A DNA stretch of 64,000 bases from a phage: sequence record OR896157.1. One strand, given 5' to 3'. Made by a program: the position numbers and the translations under genes. The notes below the pieces were generated by a model. That model ran no database searches and had not been told where the DNA came from. It saw only the letters and a list, made by a program, of their open reading frames with translations. Numbering within the stretch: the stretch's first letter is position 1; every line of letters begins with the position of its first letter. This document shows positions 5,731-64,000 of this stretch, one piece after another.

Positions 5731-5744
5731 GGGCCCGAAGGCCC
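5731..5744 (-). terminator. GGGCC-CGAA-GGCCC hairpin between small ORF and ndd
   Basis: GC stem with CGAA loop; weak U-tract, so may act as RNA stability/processing element rather than terminator. Confidence 0.3.
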
Positions 5745-6984: not shown

Positions 6985-7014
6985 TCCTCAAAAATAAAGG
7001 GCCCGAAGGCCCTT
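6985..7014 (-). terminator. intrinsic terminator-like hairpin after rIIB (AAGGGCC-TTCG-GGCCCTT then U-rich)
   Basis: minus strand reads hairpin followed by UAUUUUU. Confidence 0.5.
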
Positions 7015-10713: not shown

Positions 10714-10733
10714 GGGACTCCCGAAGGAGTCCC
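10714..10733 (-). terminator. intrinsic terminator (GGGACTCC-TTCG-GGAGTCCC then AUUUUUAU)
   Basis: 8-bp GC-rich stem, CGAA loop, U-tract on minus strand. Confidence 0.55.
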
Positions 10734-10739
10734 TAATCA

Positions 10740-10895
10740 TTACCACGAAGCACGAGAAACAATGCCTGTGACTTTAGTATAAGAGCCGTTGGTATGTCTT
10801 ACACGGATAGTGACAGTATCACCTGGGAGCGGCAGAGCATCTCCCCACATGTAGCCGTAACTTCCATCTACTAATGTTACCCAAATCTGTGACAT
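10740..10895 (-). CDS. small ORF (51 aa), not in ORF track
   Basis: ATG at 10895 after AAGGAG RBS; MSQIWVTLVDGSYGYMWGDALPLPGDTVTIRVRHTNGSYTKVTGIVSRASW. Confidence 0.35.
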   Translation of the reverse strand: MSQIWVTLVDGSYGYMWGDALPLPGDTVTIRVRHTNGSYTKVTGIVSRASW

Positions 10896-10934
10896 AATAG
10901 CTCCTTATTGTATCGGGCAAGACGCCCGATATAT

Positions 10935-12779
10935 TTATTCGCTCATCCAGACCTTGCGTGGAGCAGCATCAGAACCCATAACCATCTCGAAGAGTTCTTT
11001 CCAGTTTTCCGGAAGAGAAACTACATCATAATGAGGTTCTTGGATTACTCGTTCATATTCGTCTTCTTCCAAAGAACCGAGCCCTTTGATGTAACGAAGT
11101 TTCCAACCAGCAAGTTCATCTTTTTCAGCTTCATATTCAGCGGCAGTGTAATACCACTTCTGTTTGTCTCCTTTACTCATAATGATAACAGGAGTTTTGA
11201 CGAAGCGAATTCGACCTTCTTCAAACAGACGAGGCCAATTACTAAAGAATGCCAAAAGACTTGGATAGATTGAACCTGTTCCGTCAACATCCGCGTCAGT
11301 CATGATAGCGATGTTTTTGTAGTTCAGATTTTCATAATCTTCACCAATAGTCAGTCCAGTGATTGCACAGATATCGAAGACTTCTTTGTTCTTCATTGCT
11401 TCTGCTGCAGTCATTCCCCAAGTATTCAGGAACTTACCACGAAGTGGATAACCACCATGAAGTTTACGGTCACGAGTAGTCAGAAGATAACCAATCGCAG
11501 AATCACCTTCTGTTAAGAACAGAGTGGTTTCTTCTTTATCATTACCATAAAGTTCTGGCTTAATGTGTTTAGCAACCTTAGCTTTTGAAGCAGCTTTTGC
11601 AGCTTTAGTTTCAGCAGCTTTTTCTGCCGCCAATTTACGAGCCAACATAGCTTCAATAATTGGCATATGAATTGCTTCGGACTTCATAACTTGTTGAGCA
11701 AGTTTTTTGTAGTCCAAATTCAAATGAGCTTTAACTTCACCCCACGGAGATGTCAGACGTTCTTTAGTCTGAGAATCAAATCGCATGTTGCTCATATCAC
11801 GAACGAACATCACAAAAGTAAAACACTCTTTGATACGAGCTTTGTTTACTTCCAATTTGTACTTGCGTTTGAGCATTGGGATAAGTTCATTTGACAATTC
11901 GTCGACAACCAAATCAACGTGAGAACCACCCTTAGAAGTATGAATGTTATTCACGTAAGTCAGTTGGCGGAAACCATCATCAGAACGACCAATTGCAATT
12001 GAACAATTATCTTCATCAGCTACAATAGCTTCTTCATCAAATTGCTTAGCGAATTTCTTGAATCCGCCATTGACTTTTTTGCCTTGGAATTTGAATTCAA
12101 TATCCGGGAATACTACCGCCAGAGTTTGAAGACGGTCCAGAACAATTGATTCATCTACTTCTGTAAGTCCTGAACTTTCGAAGTGACTGAAGTCAGGAAT
12201 GAACGATACTCGAGTTCCGGTCTTGGTTTGAATGAACTCTTTTTCCTTTGCTGGCTTACTATCCCAAGAGATATTCTCAGCCCCATTAGAGCATCGAACG
12301 ATGATTTCGTTTTGTCCGTCACAAGTAGCTCCTGCAAAAGTTACAGAGAAAATATTAGTCAGTGCAGAACCGACACCATTCATACCACCAGTTTTGCGTT
12401 CAGCATCATCGCCAAAGTTACCACCGGCACGTGGACGAGTCCAAGCAGCTACTGGTCCAGGAATTTCATCACCTTCTGGAGTGACTACTGGAGCTTGTGG
12501 AAGACCACGACCATTATCTGTTACGATAACTTTATTGCCTTTGAGCTCAACTGAAATTTTATTTGCAAACTTGAAGTTGGTACGAATTGCTTCATCGACT
12601 GAGTTATCAATGATTTCGTCAATCAGCTTGATTACGCCCGGAACATAAGTTACACTTTGGAATTTACCAAACAGAAAACGTTCATGAGCTTCCATAGCTG
12701 AAGAGCCGATGTACATACCAGAGCGCTTAATGATATGCTCTCGGTCTGACAGAATTTTAATTTCGTTCTTAATCATCAT
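10935..12779 (-). CDS. 39: DNA topoisomerase II large subunit gp39 (GyrB-like ATPase), single ORF covering the T4 39 plus 60 regions
   Basis: ATGATG start at 12779 (GAGGA RBS); GHKL ATPase motifs ...DEIIDNSVDEA... and ...VIVTDNGRGLP...; no split or bypass segment. Confidence 0.9.
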   Translation of the reverse strand: MMIKNEIKILSDREHIIKRSGMYIGSSAMEAHERFLFGKFQSVTYVPGVIKLIDEIIDNSVDEAIRTNFKFANKISVELKGNKVIVTDNGRGLPQAPVVTPEGDEIPGPVAAWTRPRAGGNFGDDAERKTGGMNGVGSALTNIFSVTFAGATCDGQNEIIVRCSNGAENISWDSKPAKEKEFIQTKTGTRVSFIPDFSHFESSGLTEVDESIVLDRLQTLAVVFPDIEFKFQGKKVNGGFKKFAKQFDEEAIVADEDNCSIAIGRSDDGFRQLTYVNNIHTSKGGSHVDLVVDELSNELIPMLKRKYKLEVNKARIKECFTFVMFVRDMSNMRFDSQTKERLTSPWGEVKAHLNLDYKKLAQQVMKSEAIHMPIIEAMLARKLAAEKAAETKAAKAASKAKVAKHIKPELYGNDKEETTLFLTEGDSAIGYLLTTRDRKLHGGYPLRGKFLNTWGMTAAEAMKNKEVFDICAITGLTIGEDYENLNYKNIAIMTDADVDGTGSIYPSLLAFFSNWPRLFEEGRIRFVKTPVIIMSKGDKQKWYYTAAEYEAEKDELAGWKLRYIKGLGSLEEDEYERVIQEPHYDVVSLPENWKELFEMVMGSDAAPRKVWMSE

Positions 12780-13267: not shown

Positions 13268-13287
13268 AAAGGGCCCGAAGGCCCTTT
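13268..13287 (-). terminator. intrinsic terminator after the SGNH hydrolase gene (AAAGGGCC-TTCG-GGCCCTTT then UUGUUGUUU)
   Basis: hairpin starts right at the stop codon. Confidence 0.5.
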
Positions 13288-13289
13288 CA

Positions 13290-14825
13290 TTATACTTTAC
13301 CTTGCAGAACGTTAGTGAACTGCGAACCACGCCAGAAGTAGCCTTGGTCATTCGGGTGAACGTTATCGCTTGAGGTATACAGATTTGCGTTCTCTGCAGT
13401 AACCCAACCTTTAACATCTACGAACTCTAAGTCTAACTCAGTAGTAAGTTCAATCAGTGCGTCACGAACCGCTGCGATTTGGTCAGTCATTCCAAGAGGA
13501 GTTGCTGGTCCAAATACGATAATTTTAGCTTGTGGCTGATATTGCTTAATCAGAGCAATAGACTCTCTGAAGTTAGTTTTAAGCAAATCAATTCTGCCAG
13601 CCGGAGCGTCATTATAGCCTAAAGCTAAAGTAATGATATCTGGAGTAAAACTCAGAGTTGCAAGCTTAGCCGTGATACGAGCTTGAGGCTGAGTTGAGTT
13701 TGTTGAAGTCCAACCAGAACCACCGATGCCATCAGCTAATCCAACTAAACCAAGCTTATCACAATAGAAACGGAAGTCGTTAAACGACGCCTGAGTTGCC
13801 ATTGTACCGAAGGTGTAAGAGTCACCAAGCTGCCAAATCATCTTAGCCGGACGAGTAATCGCAGTGATAGTTTTTCCAGTATCAACATAAATTCCACCAA
13901 AGGCAGTATTCACGCCAACCAGAGAATATTCACGCATTTGCTCAACACCGTTCCAATCGATGCTATAGATGTAAACTGCACCAGAAGAATCAGTAGTGAC
14001 TGAAGTTGCAGAAATACGTTGTCCATCCACATAAAGATCATACTTGGAGTTATTGCCAGCGAGTTTGAAATCAATTTTGCTTGAATCGGTTTTGAAATTA
14101 ACTCGGCATTGAGTTCCGTTGCCGGTACCATTTCCTCTGTATCCAGAAACAGCATCTTTGACATCAGAACCCCAATAAGTGATTTTAGCATCAGTACGAG
14201 CAATAGTTACACCAGCATAAATCGTTGAAGCTACGCCTGCATTAGTTGTTACAGTGAATTTAGCACCTGTGCCAGTTCCGCCTGTCGCTGAAATTTCACC
14301 GGTAGGAGCAGTTGCGTACACACCAGGTTTGCGAATTTGAGCTGTTGTAATTGCGCCATCAGCACCTACAGCAGTTACTCGAATCTGTCCAGGAACATCT
14401 CCTTCTGCTCCGGGGATATCAACAATATCTCCGAACACATATCCAGTACCACCAGAAATTATAGTAGCAGTTCCAGATAATCCAACGCCTTTAATCAATT
14501 TTTGAGTAGGCGGATTTGACATTACCGCAACCGGTTGAAGCATTGGTCCTAACGGCGGTTGAGGGTCTGGAACATCTACTGTATATTCGCTTAATGTGTA
14601 TTGATAACCATTTTTAGATTCAATGAAATTAACTTCACCATAATCTACATAAGCTTGTTTGAGAGTATCAATTTGAGGGGCATATTGAGGGTCAGCGTAT
14701 TCACGCCAATCTTTACCTTCTTCCTTGGCTTTAATAAGGATGTTATGAATCCACCAAGGAAGGTAAAGAAAACTTGTATTACGCCACGGAATAGGATGTA
14801 CCGTGGTCCAAATATCTATAGCCAT
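13290..14825 (-). CDS. SGNH/GDSL-family hydrolase with Gly/Thr-rich N-terminal domain (511 aa)
   Basis: C-terminal third has block I GDSYTFG, a GYND-type block (LALGYNDA) and a DNVHPND block (Asp...His catalytic pair); N-terminal region has repeated GGTG/ATGGTGTGAKFTVTT; ATG at 14825 after AAGGAGAA RBS. Confidence 0.6.
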   Translation of the reverse strand: MAIDIWTTVHPIPWRNTSFLYLPWWIHNILIKAKEEGKDWREYADPQYAPQIDTLKQAYVDYGEVNFIESKNGYQYTLSEYTVDVPDPQPPLGPMLQPVAVMSNPPTQKLIKGVGLSGTATIISGGTGYVFGDIVDIPGAEGDVPGQIRVTAVGADGAITTAQIRKPGVYATAPTGEISATGGTGTGAKFTVTTNAGVASTIYAGVTIARTDAKITYWGSDVKDAVSGYRGNGTGNGTQCRVNFKTDSSKIDFKLAGNNSKYDLYVDGQRISATSVTTDSSGAVYIYSIDWNGVEQMREYSLVGVNTAFGGIYVDTGKTITAITRPAKMIWQLGDSYTFGTMATQASFNDFRFYCDKLGLVGLADGIGGSGWTSTNSTQPQARITAKLATLSFTPDIITLALGYNDAPAGRIDLLKTNFRESIALIKQYQPQAKIIVFGPATPLGMTDQIAAVRDALIELTTELDLEFVDVKGWVTAENANLYTSSDNVHPNDQGYFWRGSQFTNVLQGKV

Positions 14826-14849
14826 AATGTTCTCCTTATAGTCTATAGA

Positions 14850-14857
14850 TATTTATT
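14850..14857 (-). promoter_or_regulatory. late-promoter-like motif AATAAATA, 27 nt upstream of the SGNH hydrolase ATG
   Basis: 7 of 8 match to T4 late consensus TATAAATA; same variant and spacing as upstream of soc. Confidence 0.3.
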
Positions 14858-22908: not shown

Positions 22909-22911
22909 AAA

Positions 22912-22931
22912 GGGACTCCCGAAGGAGTCCC
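22912..22931 (-). terminator. intrinsic terminator after soc (GGGACTCC-TTCG-GGAGTCCC then UUUUUU)
   Basis: strongest hairpin plus U-tract in the window. Confidence 0.6.
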
Positions 22932-22939
22932 TAAACTTA

Positions 22940-23176
22940 TTATTCAGAAGGCGTAACGTCAAACAGAGTTTCGTTAGCAGCAATCCACTCGGCACGCTGA
23001 TTTCGTTCAAACACCGTAGAATACGCTGGTTTTTCAGATGGGAAAACCTGGTAGTGAGCATTAGCGATACGATGAACGTCAGAATACAGTTCAAATGCTA
23101 CAGAAATTTCTTTACCTTTTACTTCACCAGCAGAAGTCTGATGATCGAAAGTTTTTACGTTTACATAACCGGCCAT
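22940..23176 (-). CDS. soc: Soc small outer capsid protein
   Basis: 78 aa; GYVNVKTF...GKEISVAFELYSDVHRIANAHYQVFPSEKPAYSTVFERNQRAEWIAANE matches remembered T4 Soc. Confidence 0.85.
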   Translation of the reverse strand: MAGYVNVKTFDHQTSAGEVKGKEISVAFELYSDVHRIANAHYQVFPSEKPAYSTVFERNQRAEWIAANETLFDVTPSE

Positions 23177-23204
23177 TGTAATCTCCTTTAATTAGTTACA
23201 AGTC

Positions 23205-23212
23205 TATTTATT
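23205..23212 (-). promoter_or_regulatory. late-promoter-like motif AATAAATA, 28 nt upstream of soc ATG
   Basis: soc is a late gene in T4; 7 of 8 match to TATAAATA. Confidence 0.35.
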
Positions 23213-25443: not shown

Positions 25444-25486
25444 ATTATTCTCCAAAAGAATTGGCCTTATTTCTAAGGCCATTATA

Positions 25487-25951
25487 TCACAGTTTATTGA
25501 GATTTACTTTGATGCGCTTACGTTTCTTTGGTAGGGTCTCAGGACCTTTATTGGTGATTGCTCCGGTTGTGGTACCAGAGGCGATATTCTGGACACTTCC
25601 ACCGGAATCTCCGGCTACCATGTCCTCGAACAAGGGAAGAGCCTCAAATATCTCTTTTTGTTCGGATTCAGTGATATTGTAACGTGAAGCTACTGCAGAC
25701 CATGCACTCATCATGGATGCTACTCCATTGAGTCCTGGAACAGTTGTTAACATTCTTTTGATTGAACGAACCGATGCGTGGAAAGCTGTATAAGCCGCTT
25801 TCTCTTCTGGAGTAGTAGGTCGCTTCAGAACCGTACCCTTTTCATCGATTATCTTGGCTTCATATGCTTTCCATTCAGTGAATGGTTTTTGCATTAGCCG
25901 GATAAACTTATACGCATAGACGGCGTCAATACCGCTTTTAATAGTTGACAT
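25487..25951 (-). CDS. hypothetical protein (154 aa)
   Basis: minus-strand ORF with GGAGA RBS; ATAAATA motif 13 nt upstream. Confidence 0.5.
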   Translation of the reverse strand: MSTIKSGIDAVYAYKFIRLMQKPFTEWKAYEAKIIDEKGTVLKRPTTPEEKAAYTAFHASVRSIKRMLTTVPGLNGVASMMSAWSAVASRYNITESEQKEIFEALPLFEDMVAGDSGGSVQNIASGTTTGAITNKGPETLPKKRKRIKVNLNKL

Positions 25952-25966
25952 AGTCTCCTCTTCTAT

Positions 25967-26155
25967 TTATCGTTTAACACAAACGAATTTAGCAGAGGTT
26001 GAAAAATCACGAGCAGAAGTGCGCCACTCTTCACCAGCTTGGTTACACAGTTCTTCGGCAGTTGGGCCGGTTTGTGTTGGCTTGAATTCAATTTGGTTCA
26101 TAGCGACTCCGCCGTGTTCACTAATGAGAGTCATGATTAAAATGAATGTGTGCAT
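25967..26155 (-). CDS. hypothetical protein (62 aa)
   Basis: minus-strand ORF. Confidence 0.4.
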   Translation of the reverse strand: MHTFILIMTLISEHGGVAMNQIEFKPTQTGPTAEELCNQAGEEWRTSARDFSTSAKFVCVKR

Positions 26156-36272: not shown

Positions 36273-36292
36273 AAAGGGCCCGAAGGCCCTTT
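36273..36292 (-). terminator. hairpin AAAGGGCC-TTCG-GGCCCTTT between regA side and gene 43
   Basis: GC stem, CGAA loop, followed by UUUCUGCU. Confidence 0.45.
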
Positions 36293-38401: not shown

Positions 38402-39088
38402 TTAGAAATCGTGAGTACTATCTGCTTCCATTGCTACTACATAACTTGCATGTTCACCTTCGAACTTAGCAGCAGTTTTCTTACCTTGTGCCCAGAGCAG
38501 CAGTTTATAATCGGCAGGCTGCATCTTCATGTTACCCATGTTGATAACGAAGTTGAAGTTATTCGTGCCATCATAATCACCGAGAGTCAGAGAATATTTG
38601 GTACGAACAAGTGCAGAATCTTCTACCTTATTGAAGCCGTTCAGAACAATCTTACCATCTTTATTAGTGATGGTGATTGTGTCAATCTGCAGACCGCGAG
38701 ATACTCGCATCAGCTGTTGCAAGTCTTCAGATTTGAAGTCAACGATAACAGAAGCAACCGGGAATGGAATTGGCTTGCTTGGGAATACGATAGTGCTTGG
38801 GTCAGCTGCTGGCCAGAAAATGGTTGAACGAGCATCAGCAATTTTGATGTTACCGTCATCAGCCAGAGAAATTTCTGCATCTTCATTGACCAGAGACAGA
38901 ATACCAAGGAAGCCGTTCAGTTCATAAATCGCAACTTCAAAATCAATTTCATCTGCAATTTTAGCTTCAGCATAAGTTGTACCATTAACTGCTCGAGTCA
39001 TGATGAACTTACCAGGTTTCAGCATAATACCAGAGTTGATGGTAGAGAAGTTTTTCAGAATATTCAGAGTTTCTTTAGACAGTTTCAT
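38402..39088 (-). CDS. 45: sliding clamp gp45
   Basis: 228 aa; MKLSK...NF.TINSGIMLK.G.FIMTRAVNGTTYAEA...C-terminal EADSTHDF matches remembered T4 gp45. Confidence 0.9.
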   Translation of the reverse strand: MKLSKETLNILKNFSTINSGIMLKPGKFIMTRAVNGTTYAEAKIADEIDFEVAIYELNGFLGILSLVNEDAEISLADDGNIKIADARSTIFWPAADPSTIVFPSKPIPFPVASVIVDFKSEDLQQLMRVSRGLQIDTITITNKDGKIVLNGFNKVEDSALVRTKYSLTLGDYDGTNNFNFVINMGNMKMQPADYKLLLWAQGKKTAAKFEGEHASYVVAMEADSTHDF

Positions 39089-42567: not shown

Positions 42568-42587
42568 AAAGGGCCCGAAGGCCCTTT
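42568..42587 (-). terminator. hairpin AAAGGGCC-TTCG-GGCCCTTT upstream of gene 47
   Basis: GC stem, CGAA loop, followed by UUUCUGCUUUCU. Confidence 0.45.
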
Positions 42588-43323: not shown

Positions 43324-43551
43324 TCATTCTGGAAAGTATTCTAATGTGATATAAAAATCATCATCAGATATATGGTAATTGTAGTTCAAGTCTTTGCCAT
43401 CGCACTTGAACTCTGTATCATGTGGGTTCTTGGGGTCGATGTGAATGTCCAAATCCAATACCTCCCTCATATACATTTTAAGCAAATAAGGGATAGCATC
43501 GTAATCGGGCACTTCTTCTAAAAATCCTGCGAGGTTAATCGTCAGCCTCAT
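43324..43551 (-). CDS. hypothetical protein (start uncertain)
   Basis: minus-strand ORF overlapping 3-prime end of gene 55. Confidence 0.4.
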
Positions 43552-44068
43552 ATAAAAAATCCAAACTTGGACCTTCATCTACAACATCGCTCTTTTTGTC
43601 AGACCCTGGCTGTTTGTAGGTGGAGGTTTCGTAATGCGTCATTTTATCATAGATGTCTTGAATAAAAGTTTCATCTACTAACGCAACCATATCATCGTCA
43701 CGAGCATCATAGACGTTGTGAACGAAATAGCTATACTTCTTAGCAACTTCCTTACGCTCTTTCTTGATACGTTGGACGAATGCGTTAAAGCAAGCACGGG
43801 TTATATACGCATGCGGGTTGTCATACTTTGTTTCATCGAAGTTGTGTAGACCTTTAATCGAAGCTTCTACACCGTCTGAAATCATTTCATCTTTCCAAGA
43901 GCGGGTGTACCCTGAAAAGTTAAAACGCTTACTCAGACCCTCAGATATCAACATAATTGCTCTGCCGATAGTATCATTCTGACGAACGGGTTTACCAGCT
44001 TCGCGGCATTGCTGTTTCCACTCAGTGATGGCTTTCAGCAACTCCTTATTATTTACATAGTTAGCCAT
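43535..44068 (-). CDS. 55: late sigma factor gp55
   Basis: 177 aa; [111 protein letters not shown] nearly identical to remembered T4 gp55. Confidence 0.9.
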
Positions 44069-46860: not shown

Positions 46861-48679
46861 AGTGCTTTGTCCTATGCATTATTTCTTTGTTTTTACCAAG
46901 ATTAAATCCACGTTCAGATGGATTGCCAAGATATCCACAAGTGCGTCGTATTGTGTTCATCTTTTTAGGGTCTGATTCACCACATTCATGACAGACAAAT
47001 CCATCTTCCGTTGGAGTCATTTCATGAGTTGAACCGCATGTAAAGCACTTATCAACTGGCATGTTTACACCGAAGTAATCAAGATGCTCAACAGCATAAT
47101 CCCACACTGCTTCAAGACCTTTAAGGTTGTTCTTCATATCAGGAAGTTCTACATAACTGATATGACCACCCTTAGCGATGAAGTGGAAAATAGCTTCACG
47201 GTCAATTTTACCAAATGGAGAAATCTTTTCTTCTACTGAAACATGGAAACTGTTGGTGTACCACCCTTTATCGGTGACGCCTTTGATATCACCATGGACT
47301 TCAGCGTCAATCTTACAGAAGCGATAGCACAAATTCTCTGCTGGAGTTGAATAAAGACTAAAAGCAAAGCCAGTCTCTTTAGTCCATTCAGCAAGATAAT
47401 CATTCAGGCATTTCAGAAGAAGCTTACCGATATCAGCACCCAATAGAGTTTGAACTTCATGGATTCCGATGTACCCTAACGAAATTGAAGAACGACCATT
47501 TCGGAAGATGTCGAGAATCTCATCGTTTGGCTTAAGACGAACACCAAAAGCACCTTCTTGATAAAGAATAGGAGCTACAGAAGCTGTTACACCACGAAGT
47601 GATTCAATACGAGCTAAAAGAGCTTCTTTACAAATCTTCAAACGGTCATCAAGAATGTGGAAGAACTTGGTCAAGTCTGGACGGCCATCAACCATACAAT
47701 CGAGTGCTACTCGTGGTAGGTTAATTGTCACTACACCAAGATTATTACGACCATCGAGAATTTCTTCGCCGTCTTTGTTCTTCCATACGCCCAGGAATGA
47801 GCGACATCCCATTGGAGAAACTGGAACAGAAGAGCCAGTGATTAGACGGTTATTCTTTGAACTAATGATGTCAGGATACATTCGCTTACTTGCACATTCC
47901 AATGCAAGTTGTTTGATGTCATAGTTCACATCAGTAGGATGAAGGTTAATTCCTTCTTCAACAAACATAACGAGCTTAGGAAAAATCGGAGTGATTCCGT
48001 CTCGTCCAAGACCTTTGATTCTATTTTTGAGAATAGCTTTTTGAATCATTCGTTCATAATCGCTTGTACCAGTACCAAAGGTAATTGTCACGAATGGAGT
48101 TTGTCCATTTGAACTGAACAAAGTATTGACTTCATATTCATAAGCTTGGAATGCGTCGTATACGTCTTTTTCTGTTTTCTCAATCGCGTATACATAGTCA
48201 TTGACATGCTCAATGCCGTATCTTTCTGCATCGTGTAAATGCTTAAAGAAAGTCTTCTCTACAAAAGGAGCAAGTACAACATCAACATTAGCAAATGTCG
48301 TTCCACCATATTGATGTGAAGCTACTTGAGCAGTGATTTGAGCCATAATAGCAGTTGCTACACCAATTGACTTTGGAGTCTCAATTTGAGCATTACCAAG
48401 TTTAAATCCATTGCTGAGCATACCCTTCAAATCGACTAAGCAACAGTTAGTGAATGGAAGAGCTGGAGAATAGTCTAAGTCATGAAAATGAATAAGACCT
48501 TTATCATGAGCATTTAGAACAGTAGGAGAGATAACCTGACGAGCAATGTGTTTTGAAACAATTCCTGCCATCAGGTCTCGTTGAGTTGGAAAAACACGAG
48601 AATCTTTATTAGCATTCTCGTTTAGTAAGTCTTTGTTGGTGCGGTTGATTAAACCCTGGATTTCTGATTCAATTGTCAT
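46850..48679 (-). CDS. nrdD: anaerobic ribonucleoside-triphosphate reductase NrdD, uninterrupted
   Basis: 609 aa continuous ORF; glycyl-radical C-terminus ...RRTCGYLGNP... and C-x2-C...C-x2-C zinc site; no intron. Confidence 0.9.
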   Translation of the reverse strand: MTIESEIQGLINRTNKDLLNENANKDSRVFPTQRDLMAGIVSKHIARQVISPTVLNAHDKGLIHFHDLDYSPALPFTNCCLVDLKGMLSNGFKLGNAQIETPKSIGVATAIMAQITAQVASHQYGGTTFANVDVVLAPFVEKTFFKHLHDAERYGIEHVNDYVYAIEKTEKDVYDAFQAYEYEVNTLFSSNGQTPFVTITFGTGTSDYERMIQKAILKNRIKGLGRDGITPIFPKLVMFVEEGINLHPTDVNYDIKQLALECASKRMYPDIISSKNNRLITGSSVPVSPMGCRSFLGVWKNKDGEEILDGRNNLGVVTINLPRVALDCMVDGRPDLTKFFHILDDRLKICKEALLARIESLRGVTASVAPILYQEGAFGVRLKPNDEILDIFRNGRSSISLGYIGIHEVQTLLGADIGKLLLKCLNDYLAEWTKETGFAFSLYSTPAENLCYRFCKIDAEVHGDIKGVTDKGWYTNSFHVSVEEKISPFGKIDREAIFHFIAKGGHISYVELPDMKNNLKGLEAVWDYAVEHLDYFGVNMPVDKCFTCGSTHEMTPTEDGFVCHECGESDPKKMNTIRRTCGYLGNPSERGFNLGKNKEIMHRTKHCEV

Positions 48680-49149
48680 TTTAAACTCTTACGAAGTTGC
48701 TTTTTGAATGAAGCAACAAGCTTTGGTTTGGAATCATCTTCAGAATAGGTAAACCCGTAAGCATTCATTTCAGCTATCATCTCGGGTTTACCAAGTCGAC
48801 TGAATTCTTTTGACTTATCGCCAATGAAATTAGGATGAATGTTGTTTTTAGTATAGTCATTCTTCAGATAGGTCAGCAAACTCTCAAGCCACTCGAGGTA
48901 GTCGACTTCACGACCTTTCAAACCAGAGCGGTTGAACTTATGCTTCATTTGACCTTCTGCTGCGTTACACAAATTACACAGTAAACCACGAACTTTACCG
49001 GCTTTTGGTCCGTTCAATTCATGGTCGTGGTCAAGGTGGTTACTTTGAACATCGCTGTCTAATTCACGTTTACAAATCGGACAGATACCATGCTGTGCAT
49101 CAAATAGTCTTTGTTTTTCTTCTTTGTAGAGTTTGCTGGTCAATAACAT
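48676..49149 (-). CDS. 49: endonuclease VII gp49 (Holliday junction resolvase)
   Basis: 157 aa; nearly identical to remembered T4 gp49 (MLLT.KLYKEEKQ...HLDHDHELNGPKAGKVRGLLCNLCNAAEGQMKHKFNRSGLKG). Confidence 0.9.
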   Translation of the reverse strand: MLLTSKLYKEEKQRLFDAQHGICPICKRELDSDVQSNHLDHDHELNGPKAGKVRGLLCNLCNAAEGQMKHKFNRSGLKGREVDYLEWLESLLTYLKNDYTKNNIHPNFIGDKSKEFSRLGKPEMIAEMNAYGFTYSEDDSKPKLVASFKKQLRKSLK

Positions 49150-49173
49150 AGTTCACCTCAATATTAGATGAAC

Positions 49174-49181
49174 TATTTATA
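49174..49181 (-). promoter_or_regulatory. late promoter TATAAATA upstream of gene 49
   Basis: perfect 8-mer on minus strand 24 nt upstream of the gene 49 ATG; T4 gene 49 is known to have a late promoter. Confidence 0.55.
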
Positions 49182-57290: not shown

Positions 57291-58268
57291 TTATTTCAGC
57301 ATAGTTACTTCAGCAATTTCAGTCCAGTTTTTCTCGTCAGTAGCGACGAAATCTGCCAGGTAAAGAGCTGTGCGGAGAGATACATTACGAAGACGATTAA
57401 CGTTGTTTTGCATAAATGCCAGAACGTCAAGTACTTGGTAGTGTTTTAATCCGCGATTTTGCAACATGTCGGTTGTCATAATAACATCTTCAACGCGAGA
57501 CATGATTTCTTCGTTTGTGTGAACTCCGAGGTCCAAATAAACAGAACGAGATACTAAAGCAGAAAGATGTGGAGCTAATTTGCTGCCGCGTTCTAATTCT
57601 TTATCAATATCAACGTTAGTGATGAATACGACAGTACCTTCAAATTCAAATTCGTTTGGAATATCTTTTTCTTCCAGGAAAGCAGAAGCAGTTGACCAGC
57701 AAACTTTACGTTTTTCGCCAGAATCAAGAGCAGCTTTCAGAAGGTTCAGAATGTCCATATCAGAAAATACATCCACATCGTCAATAAGCAGAACAGAATT
57801 TGAATGACGAGATTCCCAGAGACGGCAGTAAAGACCGATACCAGAAATTTTACCGTTAACCATTTTGTATTCAATATCACCGCGAGCATCTGCTTTAGTT
57901 AATGCTTTATCTAAGGAGAAAGTTTTACCGATACCAGCAGCACCTGAGATAATCAGTGAACGAATGTTCCCGTTAACCAGACCAGCAGTCATTAACCCCA
58001 TAACGTTGAAGCGTTTAGCGATACGTGCTTTCATTTCTTCAACAGATTCGGTCAAAACTTCTTTGACTTCTTGACCTTCAATTTTGTAATCACCGTGGAA
58101 AACCCATACTCCGCGTTTCTTACCATCGATGTTTACGAATACTTTACCATCACCCTGAGCAGCATCAGATTCTGATAAATCTTTTGGGAACCACTCGCCC
58201 AGAAGTTCGAAGGTACCAGAGATTTCTTTACCGAAGTTAGTACCTTTAGCGATAGTGATGGTTTTCAT
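57291..58268 (-). CDS. P-loop NTPase (Walker A/B), AAA+ or DnaC/IstB-like (325 aa)
   Basis: Walker A GAAGIGKT, Walker B LLIDDVDVF; about 100-aa N-terminal domain of unknown type. Confidence 0.55.
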   Translation of the reverse strand: MKTITIAKGTNFGKEISGTFELLGEWFPKDLSESDAAQGDGKVFVNIDGKKRGVWVFHGDYKIEGQEVKEVLTESVEEMKARIAKRFNVMGLMTAGLVNGNIRSLIISGAAGIGKTFSLDKALTKADARGDIEYKMVNGKISGIGLYCRLWESRHSNSVLLIDDVDVFSDMDILNLLKAALDSGEKRKVCWSTASAFLEEKDIPNEFEFEGTVVFITNVDIDKELERGSKLAPHLSALVSRSVYLDLGVHTNEEIMSRVEDVIMTTDMLQNRGLKHYQVLDVLAFMQNNVNRLRNVSLRTALYLADFVATDEKNWTEIAEVTMLK

Positions 58269-63882: not shown

Positions 63883-64000
63883 GTTTAACCTTCGTTAGAG
63901 AAACATATTGCTTACCAGCATGAACTCCTTCTTCAGTGCACTGGGTAGTACAACTTGAAGCTGCCCATTTCTGCTTAATGAAAGAAAAGAAACGTTCAGA
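63865..64000 (-). CDS. hypothetical protein, C-terminal fragment (gene enters from beyond window end)
   Basis: open frame from window edge to a stop at 63865, overlapping the next start. Confidence 0.3.

Follow-up and report, generated by a model that had tools for sequence, protein, structure and literature searches.

Predicted T4-type late promoters in the early region of a Karamvirus genome

Introduction

Whether a short AT-rich sequence upstream of gene 49 could serve as a late promoter of the bacteriophage T4 type, within a region of early genes, is the question raised by one locus of the phage record OR896157.1. The stretch of 64,000 nucleotides analysed here, hereafter called the window, had received a first-pass annotation that read the octamer TATAAATA before gene 49 as a late promoter, pointed to variants of it before soc and before a gene for an SGNH hydrolase, and took these boxes to mark late-expressed genes embedded in the early region. 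We examine that proposal in light of where the boxes lie, how they are conserved among T4-type phages and which RNA structures are predicted next to them.

Among 50 listed late sites of T4, 32 are perfect and nine carry A at position −13 (PMC2988020), and T4-like phages often have T or A at this position (PMC1524935). Furthermore, for the T4 genes e, soc, 49 and I-TevI, the RNA made early by read-through is described as translationally silent and the late RNA as being without the 5′ arm (PMC3014915, PMC2988022). Passages in PMC3014915, PMC2988021 and PMC2988022 that cite Barth et al. (1988) ascribe to T4 gene 49 a late promoter with an inhibitory leader hairpin, and a passage in PMC2988022 that cites Macdonald, Kutter and Mosig (1984) ascribes a late promoter to T4 soc. 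The GenBank and RefSeq records of T4, which we checked for promoter features, have none annotated, and a literature search for Karamvirus transcriptomics and for genome-wide start-site maps of T4 returned nothing usable and no transcript data for the genus.

Results

Genomic context

A 2.5-kb probe around the gene 49 box is 99.4% identical to the Enterobacter phages SonariX and vB_Ecl_id4496 and 96% identical to CC31, and by these sequence identities the window is assigned to the early region of a Karamvirus, a CC31/PG7-like Enterobacter phage of the T4 type. Its G+C content is 39.5%. The minus strand carries every gene of the window and the plus strand none, and thus all of the boxes named in the first-pass annotation are read on the minus strand. 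An Rfam search of the window matched no family.

Inventory and placement of the boxes

The heptamer ATAAATA, which forms the core of the box, occurs at five places:

49174-49181, minus strand: TATAAATA, predicted gp55-type late promoter of gene 49; 24 nt to the ATG at 49149; predicted +1 near 49168
23205-23212, minus strand: AATAAATA, predicted late promoter of soc; 28 nt to the ATG at 23176; predicted +1 near 23199
14850-14857, minus strand: AATAAATA, predicted late promoter of the Hoc-like/SGNH gene; 24 nt to the ATG at 14825; predicted +1 near 14844
10932-10939, minus strand: AATAAATA, candidate late promoter of a 51-aa ORF (10740-10895), 36 nt upstream; predicted start near 10926
25964-25971, minus strand: GATAAATA, weak candidate; 12 nt to the ATG at 25951 of ORF 25487-25951 (gene 61.1)

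The perfect box that had been reported 24 nt from the endonuclease VII start is present, with a gap of exactly 24 nt to the ATG, and the heptamer that had been seen before ORF 25487-25951 is likewise there, 12 nt before its start codon. The boxes of soc and of the SGNH gene were correctly located, and both are AATAAATA; of the 27–28 nt that had been given as their distance from the ATG, 28 nt applies to soc, but the gap at the SGNH gene is 24 nt. The site at 10932-10939 is a fifth one, absent from the earlier list. The motif is perfect at gene 49, has the documented A(−13) variant at soc, the SGNH esterase gene and the 51-aa ORF, and has G(−13) at gene 61.1. All boxes lie in the sense orientation, and their spacings of 24, 28, 24 and 36 nt can be compared with the 14–36 nt of well-placed sites in CC31, against which the 12 nt at gene 61.1 are borderline.

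The box is not enriched by count; the non-random signal is its placement. Specifically, TATAAATA is found once in the window compared with 3.2 copies expected, the sole copy being the gene 49 box, and AATAAATA three times compared with 5.3 expected. The heptamer itself is depleted, with five copies on both strands together where dinucleotide shuffles have 15.4 ± 3.8; five or fewer copies are seen in only 0.5% of the shuffles. Intergenic DNA makes up 5% of the window and contains all five copies, each of them on the sense strand, 12–36 nt 5′ of a start codon. The resulting distribution over intergenic, sense-coding and antisense DNA is 5/0/0, compared with a mean of 2.25/10/5.85 for the other 20 heptamers that likewise consist of five A and two T. 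When intergenic DNA only is considered, five copies against 1.6 expected amount to a modest enrichment (P = 0.03). Heptamer variants with one mismatch gave nine matches upstream of start codons in the window, none of them convincing, and the first six bases 3′ of the boxes (GTTCAT, GACTTG, TCTATA and TATCGG) contain 3–5 A/T out of six, which is not clearly above the background of 60% A+T.

The motif is short and AT-rich, and four of the five boxes share bases with the TAA that ends the preceding gene; one or two boxes could therefore be fortuitous. Some or all of them might be chance strings, made of a TAA stop and an A/T-rich spacer and devoid of promoter function, and the number of intergenic copies expected by chance as well as the gene 61.1 site, where the exact box is confined to close relatives and the spacing is atypical, would fit such an origin. 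It is nonetheless very improbable, since ATAAATA is wholly missing from coding and antisense DNA and since the heptamer is kept before gene 49, soc, the esterase gene and the 51-aa ORF despite differing flanks, upstream genes and hairpin sequences.

Gene 49

At gene 49, the following features accompany the box:

48676-49149, minus strand: gene 49, recombination endonuclease VII (Pfam Endonuclease_7 and Endonuc-dimeris, the dimerisation domain; CC31 annotation)
49148-49176, minus strand: 11-bp hairpin in the gene 49 leader, fold −12.2 kcal/mol

The box sits in the 34-nt spacer between pin and gene 49. Its perfect sequence had been considered consistent with the late promoter of T4 gene 49; position and the hairpin that follows do match, but the T4 box, 29 nt upstream of the gene, is AATAAATA and thus not perfect. 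For a wider comparison, 46 loci were recovered with the gp49 protein (52–100% identical to that of the window), giving 47 with the window itself. Upstream of the gene, 42 of the 47 carry NATAAATA, the first base being A in 19, T in 11, C in six and G in six, and the remaining loci have the Aeh1-type CTAAATA described by Nolan et al. (four loci) or ATTAAATA (one locus). At every one of the 47, a hairpin extends from the 3′ end of the box to the start codon and encloses the Shine-Dalgarno sequence.

In the window, the 5′ arm of this hairpin begins in the last 3 nt of the box, and the 3′ arm takes in GAGGTG, the Shine-Dalgarno sequence, and the first two bases of the AUG. Opening the ribosome site is predicted to cost 11.5 kcal/mol in read-through RNA versus 3.7 kcal/mol in the predicted late RNA, which would start 6 nt past the box. 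Over the 9-bp helix in an alignment of 21 distinct sequences, 96.8% of the cells are paired versus 36–49% when the partner is slid by 1–3 columns. Five of the nine pairs show compensatory change, 39 cells have changed on both sides, and the observed covariation score was reached in none of 500 shuffles. In addition, a U.G pair is kept in 18 of the 21 sequences, which argues for an RNA structure on the sense strand rather than a DNA structure. A DNA cruciform, a candidate in view of the fact that the gene product cleaves branched DNA, was rejected because the opposite strand would have an A.C mismatch in place of the U.G pair.

The soc gene

A second late gene of T4 within the early region is found here as a compact unit:

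22940-23176, minus strand: soc, small outer capsid protein (Pfam Soc, E 4.7e-34)
22911-22932, minus strand: terminator hairpin with a T-run, 7 nt past the soc stop, followed by a MotA-box-like TGCTTT and TATAAT

T4 soc has TATAAATA 29 nt upstream, and each of 33 further soc loci (50–99% protein identity) has (T/A)ATAAATA 26–36 nt upstream, though the upstream genes differ. The A at −13 is present in eight of these 33 and in the window. Because the strong terminator lies directly after the gene, soc forms a monocistronic unit, as in T4. Its leader hairpin is weak in this phage (6 bp), and the predicted cost of opening the ribosome site differs little between read-through RNA and late RNA (3.6 versus 1.7 kcal/mol). 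Only gene 49 and soc have a box that is orthologous to a mapped T4 late promoter, with the box at the same place in the T4 sequences.

The Hoc-like esterase gene

The third box precedes a gene that has no counterpart in T4:

13290-14825, minus strand: 511-aa Hoc-like capsid-decoration protein with C-terminal SGNH/GDSL esterase (Pfam Lipase_GDSL_2, residues 333-496; PHROG head decoration)
14809-14855, minus strand: long hairpin, 13 + 6 bp, from inside the esterase box to codons 2-6, enclosing the Shine-Dalgarno sequence and the AUG

All four catalytic blocks are intact in the GDSL/SGNH domain at residues 333-496, and residues 9-74 match the capsid-binding domain of T4 Hoc (residues 294-360) with 40% identity (E 6e-15). 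The product is Hoc-like with a reversed topology, the capsid-binding domain being N-terminal and the esterase C-terminal. Fokine et al. (2023) already described this 511-residue protein in PG7 as Hoc-like, with the capsid-binding domain first and the GDSL domain at the C-terminus (PMC10385173). The CC31 record carries its canonical hoc as two annotated pieces, hoc-A and hoc-B (107408-108219), which suggests a frameshift or split in that record; the Hoc-like esterase gene is intact. A literature search for virion proteomics of the esterase found nothing usable. Late synthesis is what one expects of a capsid-decoration protein, and for the 511-aa protein it would fit the proposed role as a capsid-displayed esterase.

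The esterase box is retained in relatives that have unrelated DNA or an unrelated gene immediately upstream, and it is present in four lineages. The homologue of the PEi20 type has CATAAATA, the Cronobacter phage S13 has AATAAATA 24 nt upstream, and in the Kanagawavirus CIP9 a 52%-identical homologue lies directly after soc and its terminator, with its own AATAAATA 25 nt upstream. One pair of the esterase stem appears as A-U, G-U, G-C or A.C across four relatives. The predicted cost of opening the ribosome site in the window is 7.7 kcal/mol in read-through RNA versus 4.5–5.8 kcal/mol in late RNA, a gap of only ~2–3 kcal/mol, and 6 bp of inner stem would still cover the AUG in the predicted late RNA. 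The direction of this difference is shared by all esterase lineages, read-through RNA always demanding more energy than the predicted late RNA to free the ribosome site. On these modelled folds, the esterase gene appears to be a new instance of the architecture that couples a late box to a hairpin over the ribosome-binding site.

Sites before the 51-aa ORF and gene 61.1

Two further boxes precede the 51-aa ORF and gene 61.1. The first of these lies in the following context:

10911-10931, minus strand: hairpin, 9 bp
10740-10895, minus strand: 51-aa ORF (CC31p004, phrog_4369), conserved, no assigned function
10714-10733, minus strand: terminator

The topoisomerase gene 60plus39 ends in a TAA that overlaps the box at 10932-10939. 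Among 27 T4-like loci examined, 18 have (T/A)ATAAATA together with a hairpin of variable sequence at this place, and conservation of the box beside so variable a hairpin argues for a function of the box. The hairpin stops 5 nt short of the Shine-Dalgarno sequence and leaves it uncovered, and on the opposite strand the hairpin plus box resembles a weak terminator.

The gene 61.1 site is the weakest of the five candidates, given its G at −13, its 12-nt spacing and an exact box that is conserved in close Karamvirus relatives only; other phages have TTAAATA, AATAAATA, CATAAATA or TATAAATA 10–28 nt upstream. With a spacing of 12 nt, a late RNA made from this site would be almost leaderless and without a Shine-Dalgarno sequence.

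Hairpins at the boxes

A hairpin predicted to sequester the ribosome-binding site is thus found at gene 49 (49148-49176) and at the esterase gene (14809-14855), is weak at soc and is not formed by 10911-10931. Compensatory change is seen as covariation at gene 49, and at the esterase gene as a single pair that passes through A-U, G-U and G-C. It could be argued that the hairpins alone are conserved, as translational or stability elements or as terminators for the opposite strand, and that the box is merely their part or tail. Indeed, the last 2–3 nt of the gene 49 box pair with the UAU of the start region, and the plus strand at 10911-10933 reads as a hairpin plus TTTATT. We give this explanation as little credence as that of chance strings: no stem takes up more than 2–5 nt of the box, yet each of its 7 positions is constant, whereas the stem sequences change freely; the soc boxes are kept although this phage has no strong hairpin in common with the others there; and the window has no plus-strand genes that would need terminators.

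Terminators and recurrent stem-loops

Two terminator-like structures can be added to those already listed:

13268-13287, minus strand: terminator-like stem-loop, 2 nt past the esterase stop, followed by an early-type promoter GTTTAC ... TAAAAT
25462-25481, minus strand: terminator-like hairpin that follows gene 61.1

Except for gene 49, every boxed gene (soc, the esterase gene, the 51-aa ORF and gene 61.1; four of five) has a terminator-like hairpin with a T-rich tail no more than 7 nt past its stop codon, compared with four of the 117 other genes (Fisher P = 4e-5). The stem-loops that close these four genes point to short promoter-gene-terminator cassettes inside the early region.

Several of these closing stem-loops belong to two families of identical GC-rich stem-loops with UUCG loops, which recur after genes:

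5731-5744, 6999-7012, 13271-13284, 36276-36289, 42571-42584; also 10716-10731 and 22914-22929, minus strand: recurrent UUCG stem-loops

Several of them directly precede a MotA box with TATAAT or an early promoter of the GTTTAC type, and these stem-loop/promoter repeats presumably resemble the mobile terminator/promoter modules (PeSL) of T4-type phages.

Late-transcription machinery and the consensus in CC31

Two components of the T4 late-transcription machinery are encoded in the window:

43535-44068, minus strand: gp55, late sigma factor (E 2.3e-95 to gp55 of PDB 7D7C chain F; CC31 annotation)
38402-39088, minus strand: gp45, sliding clamp and late-transcription activator (Pfam DNA_PPF and gp45-slide_C)

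The gene for gp33 lies outside the window and is annotated in CC31. The genome of CC31, assembled from five sequence pieces, was searched throughout for NATAAATA, a search akin to the one suggested in the first-pass annotation, and most of the 46 sites lie 14–36 nt 5′ of orthologues of T4 late genes, in the correct orientation. These boxed orthologues include genes 4, 53, 9, 18, 19, 20, 22, 24, 26, 34 and 36, and also inh, uvsW, e, t, alt and rI.1. At −13, the well-placed sites have T:A:G:C in a ratio of about 15:7:2:1. Both the placement of the sites and these base counts lead us to conclude that the late box of this genus is that of T4, with little constraint on the first base. The CC31 record also has a perfect TATAAATA at 57533-57540, 24 nt 5′ of rI.1/rI, the equivalent of which would here fall just past position 64000.

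Least probable of all is that the boxes are −10 elements of host sigma-70 promoters, early or MotA-dependent middle ones, as the likeness of TATAAA to TATAAT and the genuine early- or middle-type promoters nearby (e.g. past the stem-loops at 13268 and 22911) might suggest, since a consensus scan for sigma-70-type promoters had no match that overlaps one of the five boxes, it is ATAAATA and not TATAAT that stays invariant, and neither TTGACA, GTTTAC nor a MotA box is conserved 17 or 12 bp upstream, the DNA being unrelated between phages up to the box.

Discussion

The boxes at 49174-49181, 23205-23212 and 14850-14857 are very likely T4-type late promoters, and the one at 10932-10939 is probably another. 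This reading is supported by the gene 49 and soc boxes, which are orthologous to the late promoters that T4 has according to passages in reviews citing Barth (1988) and Macdonald (1984) (PMC3014915, PMC2988022). It is also supported by the conservation of the boxes across dozens of T4-like phages in which the flanking DNA is not conserved, by the presence of genes for gp55 and gp45, and by the status of A(−13) as a documented variant. The proposal that the boxes mark late genes within the early region thus holds by comparison for gene 49, soc and the SGNH gene, with their conserved boxes and with gp55 and gp45 at hand, but it is weak for ORF 25487-25951. Late timing, dependence on gp55 and start sites at the boxes are features that we infer from T4.

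If the T4 mechanism applies, the host RNA polymerase core with the phage sigma gp55 would recognise the boxes, aided by gp33 and the DNA-loaded clamp gp45; a −35 element would not be needed, and initiation would occur ~6 nt past the box once DNA replication is under way. Early and middle transcription runs on through the region in which the boxed genes sit, and an RNA made in this way across gene 49 or the esterase gene can fold the hairpin that starts inside the box and so bury the Shine-Dalgarno sequence and the AUG. The late RNA, to judge from the geometry, would begin inside or past the 5′ arm and leave the ribosome site free, and the protein may then be made mainly late, as has been described for e, soc, 49 and I-TevI of T4.

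A bolder proposal is that the esterase gene, the 51-aa ORF and gene 61.1 are unrecognised late genes, each of them a cassette of box, leader hairpin, gene and terminator, that ATAAATA has been purged elsewhere from both strands of the 64 kb, and that the esterase cassette moves as a unit. The occurrence of this cassette at different sites, next to 39.1 in Karamvirus and after soc in Kanagawavirus, suggests such movement; taken as a whole, we regard the proposal as evenly balanced between true and false. The boxes of the esterase gene and the 51-aa ORF would be new members of the textbook class of T4 late promoters, of which the A(−13) variant and the coupling to hairpins are already known. The present result is mainly one of annotation: it predicts late timing for soc, gene 49 and the Hoc-like esterase in a phage genus that is studied therapeutically, with start sites predicted near 49168, 23199, 14844 and 10926. 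The boxes represent an ordinary, well-known feature of T4-type phages, and the understanding of T4-type late transcription is unchanged. At gene 49, the covariation indicates that the combination known from T4, a late box and a hairpin over the ribosome-binding site, is conserved across 47 T4-type phages.

It is informative to set the boxes of the window beside the known systems. With T4 late promoters, which have TATAAATA at −13 to −6 and depend on gp55, gp33 and gp45, they share the same 8 bp, the tolerated A(−13), the lack of a −35 element and a similar spacing to the start codon, and homologous gp55 and gp45 are encoded in the window. A difference is that four of the five sites in this early region have a base other than T at −13. 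The T4 soc unit is likewise a late gene inside the early region, with its own box 28–29 nt upstream and a terminator right after the gene. In the window, however, the box has A rather than T at −13, the 9-bp leader hairpin that T4 has over the AUG is reduced to 6 bp, and a competing upstream pairing is predicted.

At gene 49, the two phages share the orthologous position in the pin-49 spacer and a hairpin that starts at the box and sequesters the Shine-Dalgarno sequence and the AUG, with stem pairs that covary across phages. The details differ: T4 has AATAAATA, a spacing of 29 nt and a stem of CCCTTATC/GGTAAGGG, whereas the window has TATAAATA, a spacing of 24 nt and a stem of GTTCATC/GGTGAAC. 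Furthermore, the internal GTG start of T4 gene 49, from which a nested short gp49 is made, is GTT here (codon 53, 48994-48996), and therefore the two-protein arrangement of the T4 gene is probably not conserved. Finally, the gating described for T4 e, I-TevI and segB and for Aeh1 mobE (PMC3014915, PMC2988022) resembles that predicted for gene 49 and the esterase gene in that a hairpin masks the ribosome-binding site and the box either abuts its 5′ arm or lies within that arm. The esterase stem differs from those of T4 e, I-TevI, segB and Aeh1 mobE in that it extends into codons 2-6 and would partly survive in the late RNA.
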